Shown here piece by piece: positions 20,854 through 27,246 of a stretch of 64,000 nt of DNA. Each line of letters starts with the position of its first letter. The stretch's first letter is position 1. Made by a program: the position numbers and the translations under genes. This DNA is from an uncultured Candidatus Saccharibacteria bacterium (GTDB lineage: Bacteria > Patescibacteriota > Minisyncoccia > UBA6257 > 2-01-FULL-56-20). The stretch covers positions 21,907 through 85,906 of the forward strand of contig CAYHXC010000001.1 of assembly GCA_964360585.1 (NCBI GenBank), written 5' to 3'. The notes under the pieces were generated by a model, which was not told the DNA's origin, ran no database searches, and worked only from the letters and a program-made list of their open reading frames with translations.

Positions 20854-22620
20854 TTAGATAACTTCAGCATTGTAACAGGCCTCGCAATACACAATTTCTG
20901 GACGATCTGGGGCGTAAGAGGTTTCAAATGTGTTCGGACAAGAATCGGTTCCGTGAAAATGCGCCGCGGTATTTTTGTACACTTCATTTTTGGAAGTTGG
21001 CCCACCGCAAAGACATTCGCGCGACCAAAGCTGAAACGGATTGCGTAGTAGTGTTCGAGATTTATGACGGCAGAAGAAGCAGCGACGTGGCAAAGGAATC
21101 TGCATCCGTTTATAAAATTGCAGTTCCTGCGGCACAATCCGATAGTTCCGACCACAATCCTTACATGCCAAGATTTCTTTGAGAATATCTTCGTTCACAT
21201 CTCGAATAGCATCCGGAAGATCTTCCGACTGAATCGTTTCCTTTCCAGTCGTGACCGATACTTCCTTTCTCCAGTTAAAGTTTTTCTTCTGGGCCTCATC
21301 CTGAGTCAAGGGGAAATGATCGGTTGCCACGCTTTCGTTATACCCAAAATAAGACAGCTCCGATGGGAAAAATTCTCCGAACTTGTAACTCACGCCATTC
21401 TTGTCAACATACGGCATCTCATCCATGTGCGCTTTAATCTTCGGGAGAAGAGTCTCGTACTCTTCCTTGGAATACTCTTTATTCAAAATACAGTACTTCG
21501 CTTTTTTCAAACCGACACAGCCAAAAACGTTTTCTGACGAATGACAACCGTCCACATAATAGTAATCGCGATTTTTCCAGGAAAAGATCGCAAAGCGGCC
21601 AAGGTAGGTGTTATCTGGAGTGATCCCCTCGTAAGCAAGTTCTAGCTCCCCTCCGACATACAGGTCATAGCAATTCCTGGGAGTATCCGAACTCTCTACA
21701 TATCGAGAGTCTTCGGCTCGCTGAGCCAGGAAACAGTCTTTAGTATTTTTAGCATTTGATAAGTAATCGCCCGTTGAGTTCACCGTGTTTCGAAAGATGG
21801 CAAACTTTCTTGGCATTGTCTGTAGCATTGGAGCAAATTCTTCCTTGGCCCGCTCCATGCCCGAGTATGTATCAAGTGCATATTCCTTTAGAATCTTTTC
21901 GTACTCCTCTTTCGAGTACTGCTTATTTTTGAAACAGTATCGCTTATGCCGCAACCCAACACACATAAAACTGTCCGAACAGTCACGACAGTCGTACATG
22001 AAAGCAGAATCTGAAACTGCTACCGAATAATACACATACTTCGACTGATAGCAGTTCTCAATGAAAATTCCTTCGTACACAAAACTATTTGCATCAACGA
22101 CGTTTAGACAGTCAACTAAATTTTCTCCGCTCACCAGATAGTAACTATACATACAGTCCTCCAACTTCCAGGCGATAAATACCATGTAGCAGTTCTTGGA
22201 TCGGGCAAAATCCTGGTTGTACTCACAGTTCACACTTCCACCTAGTAAGCCGTTATCATTCGCGAGCGCAATGATCGGTACTTGTTGTTGCAACTCTCGG
22301 AACTGGGTAAAAAAAGGTTTCGAGAAATCGTACTCCCGAGCGTAGTCCTTAGGGTCCCATTTATCCGACCACCAACATTTTACACAGTAAACAGTAAGCC
22401 CCGATTCGGGAGAGTAGATGGAAACAGTGCTTTTCTTGCACAAATCACACGGCCGAGAATACAGATTCATATCGTTCCGCCAGGTTAGGCGGCGTTGCTT
22501 ACGACATGCCGGACAAAATGTCGGTGAAGGAACCGCCATCTTTTTGTAGAAATCGAAGTCTTGAGCCTCGATTACAAAAGGGTTCTGACAGTTCTGACAT
22601 TGTTTAGTTTCTAGGGTCAT
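20854..22620 (-). CDS. Large cysteine-rich protein, paralog A (tandem zinc-ribbon-like CxxC pairs at both termini, Cys-containing repeat core); family not recognised
   Basis: 588 aa, about 31 Cys. N-terminus CQNC..(x17)..CPAC..(x15)..CDLC..(x14)..CVKC. C-terminus CKDC...CFFC...CLC...CEAC. The internal YSKEEYE linker occurs twice. About 45% identical to the 23407..25188 product. Confidence 0.6.
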   Translation of the reverse strand: MTLETKQCQNCQNPFVIEAQDFDFYKKMAVPSPTFCPACRKQRRLTWRNDMNLYSRPCDLCKKSTVSIYSPESGLTVYCVKCWWSDKWDPKDYAREYDFSKPFFTQFRELQQQVPIIALANDNGLLGGSVNCEYNQDFARSKNCYMVFIAWKLEDCMYSYYLVSGENLVDCLNVVDANSFVYEGIFIENCYQSKYVYYSVAVSDSAFMYDCRDCSDSFMCVGLRHKRYCFKNKQYSKEEYEKILKEYALDTYSGMERAKEEFAPMLQTMPRKFAIFRNTVNSTGDYLSNAKNTKDCFLAQRAEDSRYVESSDTPRNCYDLYVGGELELAYEGITPDNTYLGRFAIFSWKNRDYYYVDGCHSSENVFGCVGLKKAKYCILNKEYSKEEYETLLPKIKAHMDEMPYVDKNGVSYKFGEFFPSELSYFGYNESVATDHFPLTQDEAQKKNFNWRKEVSVTTGKETIQSEDLPDAIRDVNEDILKEILACKDCGRNYRIVPQELQFYKRMQIPLPRRCFFCRHKSRTLLRNPFQLWSRECLCGGPTSKNEVYKNTAAHFHGTDSCPNTFETSYAPDRPEIVYCEACYNAEVI

Positions 22621-22827
22621 GGTTTTTGTCCCGACGTTATATTTATAAAAAGAGTGTCGAAGTCGGGATCCTCTATTGTATCTCCTGCGAAACAGGATCT
22701 ATACAATCGGGACAATTCTGGCACTGACGAGCTTGCCCTGAGCTTGCTCGCAGTGAGGAGTTCGGCTGAGGCTCACTCGAAGTCCTTGTCAAACCTGTCG
22801 AATGGGTTTCTGAGTTCATGTTCTCTT

Positions 22828-22849
22828 ATTCGCGCGAATTAGAGTATAG
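22828..22849. promoter_or_regulatory. Near-perfect ~22-bp palindrome CTCTTATTCGCGCGAATTAGAG (ArsR-operator-like), just 3' of arsR-A and 5' of Cys-rich gene A
   Basis: Core TTCGCGCGAA is a perfect palindrome; the arms are ctcttat/attagag. Related sites at 23124-23145, 25191-25212 and 26041-26062. Confidence 0.5.
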
Positions 22850-23123: not shown

Positions 23124-23145
23124 TTTAATTCGCTCGAATTAGAGA
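23124..23145. promoter_or_regulatory. Palindromic site CTTTAATTCGCTCGAATTAGAG ~25 bp upstream of arsR-A start
   Basis: Imperfect copy of the TTCGCGCGAA-centred palindrome. Confidence 0.45.
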
Positions 23146-23406: not shown

Positions 23407-25188
23407 CTAGACTACTTCAGCGTTGTAACACTGCTCGCAGTAGATAATCTCCGGTCGATCAGGCGCATGGGAAGTTTCGAACTGATTAGGGCAGGAGTCG
23501 TTTCCATGAAAGTGTTGGACGGTATTGGTATATTTTTTCGAACCTACCCCTTCACACATGCACTTTCTTGACCAGGTTCGGAATGGATTCCTCATCAACA
23601 ACCTCTCATCGAAACGGCAGTTCGGACACAATCTGGGAAGCGGAATGCGAAGTCTGCGATAAAATTCTAATTCAGTCGCTGTAATTCGATAAGCTCCGGG
23701 ACACTGTCCTTGGCACTTTCCTTCATGAGCGCAACCTAATACTTCTTCCGTGACAGAATCAGGAACTTCTTCGATAGTATCCGGTAGATCGTTAAACGTT
23801 TTCGTAATTTGATACTCATACTTCTCTGGCTCTTTATAGAGATAGCCCTTCTTTTCCACTTCTGAGACATTGAGTGGAAATGACTCCTGAGCAGTCGTTA
23901 CGTTATAGCCAAACGGGGAAAGTTCTATCGGGAAAAATTCGCCAAATCGATATGAAGCACCGTTTTTATCGATATAAGGCACACTGTTCATTTGCTCAAT
24001 AATTTCTTGGCGAAGTTTTTTATACTCTTCTTCCGAATACTGTTTATTGAGAATGCAAAACTTTCGCTTCTTAAGACTCACGGTTCCAAAACAATCTTGA
24101 TCTCCGATCGCAAAGATACTGTAATCAACGTTATGAGAATTTGTTAGCGCAAACCAGCTGAAGCGAATACGGGAAGATTGGTTTCCACACTGGAGAGTTT
24201 CATACATGAGGTCGGCAGCAATTCCATAATGAGTAAAATCATAAACGTTTGTCGTTTTCCCAGGAGTGACTAAGGAACAATAGCGGCTATCCTCCATATC
24301 GTTAGCTACGAAACTATTTTTTGTATTTTTACAGTTGTAGATATAGTCCCCTGAAACATTGGATCCATGACGTTCGTGAATAAACTTTTGAGGGAATTTC
24401 TGCCAAGCCTCATGCACTTGGTTTTTTATCTTACTAACGTTGTCGTGCGCATTAAGTCCAAATTCCCTTATTTTGTTTTCATACTCTTCTTTGGAATATG
24501 GTTGGTTAAAAATATGGTAATTCTGATTTCTCAAATTGACACATCCAAAACAATTACTGCAACCAACACAATTCTTAGAAAACCAGACGTCGGTGCATCC
24601 CTCACAATCGAGAGAAAAGTTCGTTCTGTAACATTTTTGACAATTAACATTTTCATAACATAACTCACAGTTATTAATCATGAGATTATCAACGCAATCT
24701 TTACTGCCAGAGTTCATACTGCCATAGAGGCAATTTTCACTTTCATCACTGTGGAAAAGCATATAGCAATTTTTCAGATACGAGGCCATATTCACATAAT
24801 CAGAATTCTCGAGGGTGTGATAGACGCCAAAAAGAGACATCACTGGTGTCTTTTCTAGCAGTTGGCGAAGCTGAATAAAAAATGGTTTTGATGGATCGAA
24901 ATCCGTCCCATAATCAAGACCGTCCCAATCGTCACTCCACCAGCAAGGCCGACAATACACGGTGAGTTTCGAATCCGCGGCAAAAACAGAAATCATAGAT
25001 TTCCCACACTTGTCACACTTCCTTTTATAAAGACCGCGTTCATTTCTCCAAGCAAGACGCCGTTGTAAACGGCACTCCGGACACCAGGTCGGCGGTGGAA
25101 CTTCTATTTTTTTATAAAAATCAAAATCTTCCGGTTCGATCGTGAACTGTTGTTTACAGTTTTGGCAGTTTTTTGTTTCCTGAGTCAT
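23407..25188 (-). CDS. Large cysteine-rich protein, paralog B (same architecture as 20854..22620)
   Basis: 593 aa, about 36 Cys. N-terminus CQNC...CPEC...CDKC...CRPC. Dense NC..C/GC repeats in the middle. C-terminus ...CPNC...CMC...CEQCYNAEVV, co-linear with paralog A. Confidence 0.6.
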   Translation of the reverse strand: MTQETKNCQNCKQQFTIEPEDFDFYKKIEVPPPTWCPECRLQRRLAWRNERGLYKRKCDKCGKSMISVFAADSKLTVYCRPCWWSDDWDGLDYGTDFDPSKPFFIQLRQLLEKTPVMSLFGVYHTLENSDYVNMASYLKNCYMLFHSDESENCLYGSMNSGSKDCVDNLMINNCELCYENVNCQKCYRTNFSLDCEGCTDVWFSKNCVGCSNCFGCVNLRNQNYHIFNQPYSKEEYENKIREFGLNAHDNVSKIKNQVHEAWQKFPQKFIHERHGSNVSGDYIYNCKNTKNSFVANDMEDSRYCSLVTPGKTTNVYDFTHYGIAADLMYETLQCGNQSSRIRFSWFALTNSHNVDYSIFAIGDQDCFGTVSLKKRKFCILNKQYSEEEYKKLRQEIIEQMNSVPYIDKNGASYRFGEFFPIELSPFGYNVTTAQESFPLNVSEVEKKGYLYKEPEKYEYQITKTFNDLPDTIEEVPDSVTEEVLGCAHEGKCQGQCPGAYRITATELEFYRRLRIPLPRLCPNCRFDERLLMRNPFRTWSRKCMCEGVGSKKYTNTVQHFHGNDSCPNQFETSHAPDRPEIIYCEQCYNAEVV

Positions 25189-25190
25189 AT

Positions 25191-25212
25191 TCGTTTATTC
25201 GCACGAATTAGA
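25191..25212. promoter_or_regulatory. Palindromic site GTTTATTCGCACGAATTAGAGA between disrupted arsR-B and Cys-rich gene B
   Basis: Imperfect copy of the same palindrome. Confidence 0.45.
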
Positions 25213-25405
25213 GAAAAGTAAGGATCTGTTTTGCGGCAGGATGGAAATGAGAGCCTAATCGATAAAACACTTGAAGACTTTTTTGTTCTCGCTCCAAAAT
25301 ATCACAAACGGAAAGGATTCCCAAGTGTTTAGACGTGGCTTTGAAAGAAAGTCCGATCTCCCCCGCAATCTCTCCCACAGTTCCTTGTTTATTCTCGCTA
25401 ATACC

Positions 25406-25941
25406 TCGGCGGCTTGCCGCGAGGTTACCATATAAAAACTTATGATAGAATGGCCGCATGGGCGTAACCCGGAGTCATCACTGTGTCTACGACACGCACT
25501 ATCATGTCGTCTTTCCCGTTAAGTATCGCAAAGCTTTGCTATCAGGACCTCTCACTCAAGCGATTCTGGAAATCGCCCAGGACATAGAAGAACGGTATGA
25601 AGTCACGTTTGAGAAGATTGGCACCGATGGCAACCACATTCATATCCTGTGGGCTTTCCACCCCAAGTACAGCGCCACCGACATGGTGCGTCGGTTCAAG
25701 AGCATCACCGCTCGCGAACTCTTCCGGCGATTTCCGGAATTGCGTCGTGACTTGTGGGGAGGCGAGTTCTGGACTGATGGCTACTCCATCGCTACAGTCG
25801 GTACCGGCGGCGATTGGAAAACCGTCGAACGATATGTGGCCAACCAGGGAAAGACGACAGGGCATAACCTCCAGCTCAGACTCTGGCAGTGAGCCCAGGT
25901 GGCCATTCCGCTTCATACCCCGTCGGCTTGCCGCGGGGTGG
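25406..25941 (+). mobile_element. IS200/IS605-family insertion sequence (TnpA only) with subterminal imperfect palindromes
   Basis: Subterminal hairpins cctcggcggcttgccgcgagg (25407-25427) and cccgtcggcttgccgcggggtgg (25919-25941) bracket a single Y1-HUH transposase gene. The element interrupts arsR-B without an obvious target duplication, as expected for IS200/IS605. Confidence 0.7.
25458..25892 (+). CDS. tnpA: IS200/IS605 family transposase TnpA (Y1 HUH)
   Basis: 144 aa, HYHVVFPVKYRK...GNHIHILWAFHPKYS...ITARELFRRFPELRRDLWGGEFWTDGYSIATVG. The HUH motif (HIH) and catalytic Tyr region are present. Confidence 0.8.
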   Translation: MGVTRSHHCVYDTHYHVVFPVKYRKALLSGPLTQAILEIAQDIEERYEVTFEKIGTDGNHIHILWAFHPKYSATDMVRRFKSITARELFRRFPELRRDLWGGEFWTDGYSIATVGTGGDWKTVERYVANQGKTTGHNLQLRLWQ

Positions 25942-26040
25942 TTGATTGCCTTTCAGATATTTCAAAATGTCCAGGCGCCGGCGATTGGCTAAGGCCTTCA
26001 ACACTTTTTCCAGATCTCTCATTTTTTCAGCATACCATGT

Positions 26041-26062
26041 TCTCTAATTCGCGCGAATATGC
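26041..26062. promoter_or_regulatory. Half-palindromic site TCTCTAATTCGCGCGAATATGC ~30 bp upstream of arsR-B start
   Basis: Contains perfect TTCGCGCGAA, with a degenerate right arm. Confidence 0.4.
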
Positions 26063-26112
26063 CCTATAAGAACCTCGGTGACAAACGCGAATGTCTGATT
26101 CAGAACTTAGAT

Positions 26113-27246
26113 TTATTTTCGTTTCAGGGCTTCGATGCCGGGCAGTTTTTTGCCGCTCAAAAACTCGAGCATGGCGCCACCACCGGTTGAGATGAAGCTA
26201 AATGCTTTTTCCATTTTGTGTTTTTTGATAAACATGACCGTCTCTCCTCCGCCTATTAAGCGAAATGCCTTTTTATTCCGTCCAATTGATTTGGTGAGCG
26301 CGAGCGATCCATGAGAAAACTTTTTTTCTTCAATCAAGCCCAGCGGACCATTCCAGATAATCGTCCGAGCTTTTTTTATTTCACGCGCAAAGAGCTCTTC
26401 AGTTTTTACGCCAATGTCCAGTATCCTCCGGTTACTCATCTTGAAATCTATAGGGAGAAGTAAGTTGCGATATCCGGCAATCGTATGCACAAGCGGTCCG
26501 GGATTTTCATCAACTTTGGAACTATCAATATCCACCCCCCGCTCTTTTAAAAGAGTGTTCGCTACCGAGCCACCCAGGATAAACATATCCGCTTTCTTCC
26601 GAAAATAGCGAATAACGGGAATTTTTTCATGCGCTTTGCCGCCGCCGAAAATGACTACCAGTGGTTTTTTCGGTTTTCCCATAACGTGCGCCAGATGTTT
26701 CATCTCTGACTCCAGTTCCAACCCAGCATAACTCGGCAAGAATTTCGTTATTGCTTCGGTCGAAGTGTTGGCACGATGAGAAACCGGAAAAGCATCATTC
26801 ACATAATAATCCGCGAGTGAAGCCAAACTCTTGGCCAATTTCGTATCGTTCTTCTCCTCACCCGGCAAGAAACGGAGGTTTTCAAGAAGAAAAATACTTC
26901 CTTTTGGCGCCGCTTCAACCGTCTTCTGTATCTCCCTAAACCGGAAGTGTGGAATGAAGACAACCTTCCGCTTTAAAAACTTCCCCAAATTTTCACCATC
27001 TTTCTTTAAACTGAGTTTTGATACGTCTTTTCCTATGGGCTTGCCCGCCGTAGTTTTAACCGAGGTGGGACGACCGCGATGACTGACGATCACGATTTTT
27101 TCACACTGCTTCAGCAAAAATCGTATGGTTGGCAAGGTCGCTTCCATCCGCCACTCATCTTCGGTATTAAAATCTAAACGAAGCAGAACGGTGCCTTTGA
27201 GTTTGTTTTTTGCGGTTTTACTTAAGTAGTTGATCATCGTGGACAT
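26113..27246 (-). CDS. pgk: Phosphoglycerate kinase
   Basis: PGK N- and C-domains (LLRLDFN..., GGGKAHEKIP..., GGGAMLEFL). The ORF extends to 27312, but the start is placed at internal MSTMINYL by alignment with typical PGK N-termini. The start is uncertain. Confidence 0.8.
   Translation of the reverse strand: MSTMINYLSKTAKNKLKGTVLLRLDFNTEDEWRMEATLPTIRFLLKQCEKIVIVSHRGRPTSVKTTAGKPIGKDVSKLSLKKDGENLGKFLKRKVVFIPHFRFREIQKTVEAAPKGSIFLLENLRFLPGEEKNDTKLAKSLASLADYYVNDAFPVSHRANTSTEAITKFLPSYAGLELESEMKHLAHVMGKPKKPLVVIFGGGKAHEKIPVIRYFRKKADMFILGGSVANTLLKERGVDIDSSKVDENPGPLVHTIAGYRNLLLPIDFKMSNRRILDIGVKTEELFAREIKKARTIIWNGPLGLIEEKKFSHGSLALTKSIGRNKKAFRLIGGGETVMFIKKHKMEKAFSFISTGGGAMLEFLSGKKLPGIEALKRK

Follow-up and report, generated by a model that had tools for sequence, protein, structure and literature searches.

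A compact IS200-group insertion sequence disrupts one of two paralogous arsR-like genes in a Patescibacteria genome

Two related modules lie in the 64-kb stretch of DNA analysed here (the window), each combining a small arsR-like gene with a gene for a Cys-rich protein, but only one of the two arsR copies, arsR-A, is intact. What has split the other copy, arsR-B, does the responsible element still move, and what does its presence mean for the genes around it? The initial annotation attributed the split to an IS200/IS605 element encoding TnpA only, and this is borne out by family models, by the structure of the ends and by the reading frame that is restored when the insert is removed. With a probability of roughly 0.93, we conclude that a complete and probably still functional IS200-group element (tnpA only, 554 bp) is inserted in codon 26 of arsR-B (Table 1). 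It can be resolved cleanly as an ordinary insertion of this group, one that has broken one member of a pair of paralogous genes for small repressors.

Table 1. Features of the insertion and of the two arsR/Cys-rich modules, in window coordinates.
Feature	Position	Strand	Remarks
Complete IS200-group element	25394..25947	+	removal restores arsR-B; ends set where the flanks of independent sibling copies diverge
Target / left cleavage site TTTATT	25388..25393	+	adjoins left end; unduplicated
Left-end guide tetranucleotide AATA	25400..25403	+	directly 5' of hairpin foot
Left-end subterminal imperfect palindrome CCTCGGCGGCTTGCCGCGAGG	25404..25424	+	predicted DNA fold -8.2 kcal/mol
Extended -10-like element TGATAGAAT	25443..25451	+	ends 6 nt before tnpA ATG; putative promoter
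tnpA, 144-aa Y1 HUH transposase	25458..25892	+	H60-I-H62, Y126, Q130; GenBank MEK7187731.1
Right-end guide tetranucleotide CATA	25914..25917	+	C pairs with G of terminal GATT
Right-end subterminal imperfect palindrome CCCCGTCGGCTTGCCGCGGGG	25918..25938	+	folds as DNA hairpin
Right-end tail TGGTTGATT	25939..25947	+	ends in right cleavage site (TT)GATT
arsR-B 5' fragment	25948..26022	-	codons 1-25, MRDLEKVLKALANRRRLDILKYLKG
arsR-B 3' fragment	25208..25393	-	codons 26-86 and stop; no start codon of its own
Palindrome ATTCGCGCGAAT	26047..26058		upstream of arsR-B; putative ArsR operator overlapping promoter
Palindrome ATTCGCACGAAT	25197..25208		at arsR-B stop codon, 8 nt before Cys-rich gene B start
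Cys-rich gene B, 593 aa	23407..25188	-	downstream of split arsR-B
arsR-A, 86 aa	22839..23099	-	intact paralogue; GenBank MEK7187728.1
Palindrome upstream of arsR-A	23128-23139		
Palindrome at arsR-A stop codon	22828-22839		
Cys-rich gene A	20854..22620	-	45% identical to Cys-rich gene B

Taken alone, the window leaves the limits of the insert ambiguous by 3 nt, since ATT is present at both junctions. The flanks of independent sibling copies settle the matter: they diverge exactly at TTTATT/CTC... on the left and at ...TTGATT/ on the right (the slash marking the boundary). One such copy, L085, belongs to a sibling element whose TnpA is 88% identical, and it departs from the window sequence at both boundaries. 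The insertion first placed at 25406-25941 is real, but those limits were 12 and 6 bp too narrow. In the same way, the 25-codon length given earlier for the 5' part of arsR-B stands, whereas the positions given for its two junctions, 25942 and 25405, were off by 6 and 12 bp, and the 'NQ' that closed the arsR-B peptide quoted at the time is encoded by the right end of the element. Target-site duplication is absent: deletion of the 554 bp restores arsR-B with nothing gained or lost. The element is richer in GC than its flanks (54.5% versus 45%), and tnpA takes up 435 of its 554 bp, leaving no room for tnpB. Terminal inverted repeats are lacking, the ends being formed by subterminal hairpins instead. 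An Rfam scan of positions 24500-27000 at E<=1 gave zero matches, with no IS200 5'UTR/art200-like RNA and no ωRNA among them, and neither intrinsic terminators nor strong sigma-70 promoters were called within the element or at its edges.

The transposase itself is readily classified. TnpA matches the Pfam family Y1_Tnp (PF01797) over model positions 1-121 of 121 (E value 1.2e-33; 116.3 bits, cutoff 23) and passes the NCBIfam IS200 equivalog transpos_IS200 (NF033573) with 121.7 bits against a cutoff of 55. Its best matches among solved structures are the TnpA proteins of ISDra2 and IS608 (E values from 1.6e-18 to 8e-16), and alignment with these structures, run as a check on the proposed HUH motif and catalytic Tyr, located both. 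H60-I-H62 aligns with the HVH of ISDra2 TnpA, its HUH motif, and Y126 (in VERYVANQ) aligns with the ISDra2 catalytic Tyr, a position that is Phe in the mutant entry 2xo6; Q130 occupies the Tyr+4 position (YVANQ). The assignment to IS200/IS605 is already in GenBank, where the protein is named 'IS200/IS605 family transposase [Patescibacteria group bacterium]'. Its accession, MEK7187731.1, directly follows that of Cys-rich gene B, and arsR-B has no protein annotation there.

Both ends of the element carry the imperfect subterminal palindromes that had been claimed for them. The two hairpins, each of 21 nt, stand in direct orientation inside 25-nt direct repeats that are 88% identical, and the one stem pair that differs between left and right does so by a compensatory change from T:A to C:G. 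Throughout the 64-kb window the hairpin motif occurs in two copies only, those at the element ends, against 0 expected. On the left, 10 nt separate the end of the TTTATT target from the hairpin, and AATA stands directly before that hairpin; on the right, CATA stands before the hairpin and TGGTT-GATT after it. Conservation among relatives ends right after the ATT of the right-end tail.

This layout resembles that of IS608 from Helicobacter pylori and ISDra2 from Deinococcus radiodurans, in which the HUH motif and Tyr are likewise conserved, guides lie 5' of the hairpin feet, insertion takes place on the 3' side of a specific short target and the donor DNA is rejoined seamlessly; unlike these elements, the window element has no tnpB. 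The cleavage sites of IS608 are recognised through pairing with four guide bases that stand 5' of the foot of each hairpin. Its left site, TTAC, doubles as the target and is found 19 nt 5' of the left hairpin; its right site, TCAA, follows the right hairpin at a distance of 10 nt (PMC3201880). Spacing in the window element is tighter: 10 nt instead of 19 between the target and the left hairpin, and 5 nt instead of 10 between the right hairpin and the cleavage tetranucleotide.

Does the guide rule hold in this clade? From a related set of 80 loci, drawn from GTDB genomes and metagenome contigs, we compared 50 distinct right ends. In 50 of 50, the first guide base, 4 nt ahead of the right hairpin, is a Watson-Crick partner of the base 4 nt from the tip, and the pair takes three states (C:G in 22 ends, A:T in 16 and G:C in 12); the comparison is informative at one of the four guide positions, the other three being invariant and neutral on pairing. 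Stem pairs 4, 6 and 7 of the right hairpin also vary among relatives by compensatory changes. The left end of the window element follows the same rule, AATA pairing with TATT so that the first A stands opposite T. The covariation matches the IS608 rule for guides and cleavage sites, and of what we infer about this element the guide/cleavage mechanism is the best supported. It also fixes the + strand, which is the sense strand of tnpA, as the predicted 'top' (active) strand. The ISDra2 target is reportedly TTGAT, to which both the window target TTTATT and the right tip TTGATT are similar. Among more distant relatives, those with AACTTG-type left ends, a simple NATT rule fails to describe the targets found in a Binatia genome with seven copies.

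By analogy with IS608 and ISDra2, a TnpA dimer would bind both subterminal hairpins on the + (top) strand, and AATA on the left and CATA on the right would pair with the cleavage sites, namely the ..TATT of the target and the ..GATT of the right tip. The element would then travel as a single-stranded circle and integrate 3' of TTTATT with no duplication. Since excision is seamless in these elements, the arsR-B lesion would be reversible in principle. The circle junction predicted for such an intermediate, right end to left end, reads ..GGTTGATT/CTCGCTAATA.. (in longer form ...GGGGTGGTTGATT/CTCGCTAATACC...). We infer the transposition chemistry, as well as the tnpA promoter and the function of the operators discussed below, from sequence and from these better-known relatives.

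Evidence for mobility comes from the siblings of the element. The two closest (P0001 and P0242), 88% identical to it and also 554 bp long, account for six independent insertions at TTTATT. The P0242 element, whose alignment with the window element is ungapped at 88% nucleotide identity, has at least five different left flanks, every one ending in TTTATT; counting the window, L085 and five P0242 flanks, the hexamer stands directly before the left end at seven independent insertions. The 549-bp P0006 element likewise has at least five flanks in which TTTATT precedes the left end, and the specificity of the element appears to be for this hexamer. Identical TnpA proteins of sibling elements recur in many different gene contexts. 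On this comparison, the sibling clade is clearly mobile. A preference of the clade for arsR loci would be another matter: an arsR homologue lies nearby in one of the 80 related genome loci (L016), which we judge a coincidence.

For the window element itself, the initial annotation had held that it is, or recently was, active in its host genome. This is plausible because the open reading frame, the ends and the guide/target logic are all intact and the two halves of arsR-B are undecayed, a state that is compatible with a recent insertion and gives no date. Set against it, the element was found in one copy, at one site and without an empty-site allele. The 64-kb window contains no second copy, and a scan of metagenome contigs with a 29-mer from inside the left end gave zero further copies. 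All assemblies with the exact TnpA protein have it at this one site. A search by protein, with reconstituted ArsR-B as the query, returned no intact allele, the best matches being a related organism's arsR gene (P0125, 85%), which has a frameshift, and ArsR-A (77%). The reconstructed empty-site junction is CTGAAAGGCAAT/AAACAAGGAACT, and a scan of JGI metagenome contigs with a 24-mer spanning it gave zero matches.

Two readings would deny that a mobile element came to rest in arsR-B. An assembler might have joined an element from another organism or locus to arsR-B; assemblers do mis-join at repeats, the P0006 element shows different left flanks on one right flank, and the GC content of the window element exceeds that of its flanks. 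This is very unlikely, and the least probable of the explanations that we weighed, because groundwater assemblies from different Hainich H51 samples show both junctions again. Both are present on two ENA contigs, a single one is present on one further ENA contig and on one Logan contig, and the TnpA protein is also on a 141-kb NCBI MAG contig; across the H51 assemblies from ENA and Logan, and in this MAG contig, the junctions are identical. Nor does a random mis-join resemble what is seen, for the flanks are exact halves of one gene, and the junction carries the target hexamer of the family. Slightly less improbable is that tnpA is a domesticated Y1 transposase, either REP-associated (RAYT-like) or otherwise immobile. 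RAYTs (TnpA-REP proteins) share the Y1_Tnp fold, the recognition of hairpins and the hairpin flanks, the gene is single-copy as seen here, and there is a weak match to the NCBIfam model REP_Tyr_transpos. That match reaches 28.1 bits, however, far from the cutoff of 80 (NF047646), whereas transpos_IS200 is well above its own; the window has no REP/BIME arrays and only the two hairpin motifs; tnpA lies inside a broken host gene, between boundaries that are clean and of the IS type; and the 88%-identical siblings of equal length, found in at least five unrelated contexts at the same target, behave as a discrete mobile unit.

A third reading accepts the transposon but makes it a reversible switch, in which TnpA-mediated excision and re-insertion toggle ArsR-B and create two heritable states of the Cys-rich module. 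In the IS608/ISDra2 family, seamless excision leaves the target intact (PMC3201880, PMC5027513); the arsR-B halves bear no additional lesions, and TnpA and both ends are intact. Two contigs (L083 and L084) moreover break within the element hairpins, which could reflect heterogeneity at the site, although at about 2x coverage low depth is the simpler explanation. We regard a switch as unlikely, if the least unlikely of these three alternatives. No assembly holds an empty-site allele, and the occupied state alone is found in several samples; ArsR-A probably buffers the phenotype (see below); and TTTATT, with 74 occurrences in the 64-kb window, does not make the site special. The orientation of the element is also unfavourable. 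Of 37 long open reading frames, 32 lie on the - strand, and the + strand has an excess of C that persists even inside the genes encoded on it. Because of this gene strand bias and GC skew, the - strand is probably the leading strand and the top strand of the element would lie on the leading-strand template, the direction of replication being deduced from these biases. For IS608 and ISDra2, that orientation is disfavoured for both insertion and excision (PMC5027513), so that the window element seemingly runs counter to their usual pattern. An ordinary insertion of a complete IS200-group element is the reading that we carry forward.

How does this element compare with IS200 itself, the type member of the group? 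As in IS200 of Salmonella and other Enterobacteriaceae, a Y1 HUH TnpA is the only protein encoded, the hairpins are subterminal and there is no target duplication. IS200 is 707 bp long and has been described as the smallest among known IS elements that are fully autonomous, and in its left end a second stem-loop, in the 5'UTR, masks the Shine-Dalgarno sequence (PMC4513863). Unlike IS200, the window element has 554 bp, no second left-end hairpin and a -10-like box close to the ATG. More distant relatives keep a second left-end hairpin (CTGAAAACC..GGTTTTCAG); neither this hairpin nor a Shine-Dalgarno sequence ahead of tnpA is present in the window element or in its closest siblings. The TGnTAnAAT-N6-ATG layout is found in sibling elements as well, and more distant relatives have a -10-like hexamer 6-7 nt before the ATG. 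A -10-like box that ends 6 nt before the ATG, together with the lack of a Shine-Dalgarno sequence, suggests that the tnpA mRNA is leaderless. With a length of about 550 bp, an apparently leaderless tnpA mRNA and no second left-end hairpin, this clade may represent the most compact type of autonomous IS described; as a claim to novelty it is weaker than a reversible switch, but more likely. ISfinder is said to hold some IS200-group members shorter than 600 bp.

We now turn to the gene that was hit. Deletion of the 554 bp yields an arsR-B open reading frame of 86 codons that is colinear with ArsR-A from end to end. The alignment with ArsR-A across the junction, proposed earlier as a check, was run, and both arsR-B fragments align without a gap: 66 of 86 residues are identical between ArsR-A and reconstituted ArsR-B, as are 182 of 262 nt at the DNA level. 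As the gene now stands, full-length ArsR-B cannot be made, because the insertion separates 25 from 61 codons and shifts the frame. Read-through from arsR-B into the element would give a frameshifted product of 48 aa ending at a stop at 25876, since 554 = 3x184+2. The 3' fragment, with its 61 codons, holds the whole of the inferred helix-turn-helix and wing.

Both proteins belong to the ArsR/SmtB type, as they pass NF033788 (cutoff 55) with 62.5 bits for ArsR-A and 57.7 bits for reconstituted ArsR-B, and palindromic operator-like sites flank their genes; the ArsR-type winged-helix domain is matched by Pfam HTH_5 at 30.3 bits. They differ from known ArsR/SmtB repressors in being just 86 aa long, with a single Cys by inspection (..ACDL.. 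in ArsR-A and ..VCDI.. in ArsR-B) and no C-terminal extension. Neither the CXC metal site of alpha3 nor the C-terminal site of alpha5 was found when the two sequences were inspected, and no NCBIfam equivalog model reaches its cutoff. Arsenic or another metal should therefore not be assumed to be the signal of such minimal proteins. The Cys-rich proteins encoded downstream have no family or solved-structure match in Pfam, NCBIfam or the PDB, the only matches being sub-threshold ones to treble-clef zinc fingers.

It had been proposed that the insertion leaves Cys-rich gene B without its repressor while module A remains regulated, a natural contrast between a derepressed and a regulated module. 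The surrounding sequence does not support this. The palindrome ATTCGCGCGAAT, allowing 0-1 mismatch, occurs four times in the window, where roughly 0.1-0.3 copies are expected, and all four stand at module boundaries, two for each module. It extends to an imperfect inverted repeat of about 26 bp (TTCTCTAATTCGCGCGAATaAGAGAA) and is conserved in the corresponding places next to arsR homologues on other Patescibacteria contigs, distant relatives included. The stretch LSFKATSKHL, the inferred recognition helix, is identical in ArsR-A and ArsR-B. Because the palindromes are common to both modules and this stretch is identical, ArsR-A likely cross-represses module B in trans through the putative shared operators; it probably still occupies the module B operators, which would blunt the regulatory effect of losing ArsR-B. 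Module A is itself altered, with a 218-nt spacer between its operator and Cys-rich gene A that contains a 48-aa gene fragment, a remnant of the 5' end of another paralogue. A derepressed-versus-regulated contrast between the two modules is thus doubtful.

The insertion could act on gene B in other ways as well. Transcription from the arsR-B promoter may run through the element, antisense to tnpA, and polarity is hard to predict because no terminators or strong promoters were called in the element. Overall, gene B could be derepressed, subject to polarity or unaffected, and sequence does not predict which.

For annotation, these results mean that arsR-B is an IS-disrupted pseudogene and that the element is a 554-bp IS200-group member with the target TTTATT. 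The pair of modules, one with its arsR intact and the other with it disrupted, offers a possible natural comparison for the function of the Cys-rich genes; it would be useful only if the modules differ in metatranscriptomes, which the shared putative operator makes doubtful. If the switch were true after all, regulation of a Cys-rich gene module would exist in two heritable states within a small-genome Patescibacteria population. The broader interest of the locus is modest and lies in the architecture of about 550 bp, the hexamer target TTTATT and the clean covariation of guides and cleavage sites. It brings to light an IS200 clade, compact and apparently leaderless, with multiple copies in metagenomes of groundwater Patescibacteria, and the 50 right ends in three covarying states constitute a natural dataset that supports the IS608 rule beyond the model elements.

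The 12-bp palindrome ATTCGCGCGAAT, which widens into an imperfect inverted repeat of about 26 bp (TTCTCTAATTCGCGCGAATaAGAGAA), flanks the 86-aa ArsR-like gene at every copy, those of distant Patescibacteria contigs as well as those of the window, with one palindrome lying upstream of the gene and one across its stop codon. Judged from sequence, this palindrome is probably the operator of the 86-aa ArsR-like family.

Coordinates of the features described here
Feature	Location	Position	Strand
Palindrome ATTCGCGCGAAT	window	22828-22839, 23128-23139, 25197-25208, 26047-26058	
Palindrome ATTCGCGCGAAT	L086 (ANAN16-1 groundwater metagenome)	70, 732	
Palindrome ATTCGCGCGAAT	L087 (contig of a related MAG)	3463, 3761	
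Palindrome ATTCGCGCGAAT	L089 (distant Patescibacteria contig)	3452	
Palindrome ATTCGCGCGAAT	L090 (distant Patescibacteria contig)	3455, 3761, 3838	
arsR-B-like gene	L086	106-345	
IS200-group relative	L016 (Saccharibacteria MAG CAYHJR010000056.1)	1425-2400	
Cys-rich gene A	window	20854..22620	-
Module A spacer	window	22621-22838	-
48-aa ORF (MNSETHS...QCQNCPDC...)	window	22673..22819	-
Cys-rich gene B	window	23407..25188	-
tnpA start region	window	25443-25460	

The nearest arsR-B-like gene elsewhere, that of L086, is 85% identical; an additional T within a T-run shifts the frame of its C-terminus, and its downstream palindrome is degenerate. The frameshift could be either a sequencing error or the mark of another decaying arsR copy. 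A second, independent association between an IS and arsR was found at L016, where an arsR homologue (MRENNLEKFLKALANRRR...) has its ATG exactly at the end of an IS200-group relative (TnpA 59% identical), placing the element between that gene and its upstream palindrome and -10 region. Because this is the sole such case among 80 loci, the association is probably a coincidence.

The two Cys-rich paralogues of the window, each about 590 aa long and 45% identical to one another, carry treble-clef-like CxxC pairs at each end and a core of Cys-rich repeat, and had no above-threshold match in Pfam, NCBIfam or PDB. On L087, four Cys-rich genes surround one arsR. In module A, a 218-nt spacer separates the arsR-A stop codon and operator from Cys-rich gene A. 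Compared with the gene that follows arsR on L087 (start MLQETKECQNCPD), the 48-aa ORF in this spacer appears to be a 5' end orphaned from a third Cys-rich paralogue, which suggests that a tandem array of paralogues underwent an earlier deletion or recombination.

Contigs L093-L102 hold an identical 549-bp IS (the P0006 element), with one common right flank and differing left flanks. Since different left flanks meet one right flank, either assembler mis-joins over a multi-copy repeat or genuine recombination between copies could account for the pattern.

Across the window, genes are strongly biased in strand, with 32 of 37 long ORFs on the minus strand, and plus-strand GC skew is uniformly negative; the active strand of the element is opposite to that bearing most genes. 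This orientation would go against the preference for the lagging-strand template that has been reported in the IS200/IS605 family.

Both window arsR genes match tnpA in the layout ahead of their start codons, with TGGTATGCT-N6-ATG and TGGTATACT-N10-ATG. Throughout the TnpA clade of the window element (the window, L093-L109 and L001-L024), a -10-like hexamer, TAnnnT, often preceded by TG, lies 6-7 nt upstream of the tnpA ATG, and no usable Shine-Dalgarno sequence was found upstream of tnpA. The position of this hexamer and the lack of a usable Shine-Dalgarno sequence imply that the tnpA mRNAs of this clade would be leaderless.
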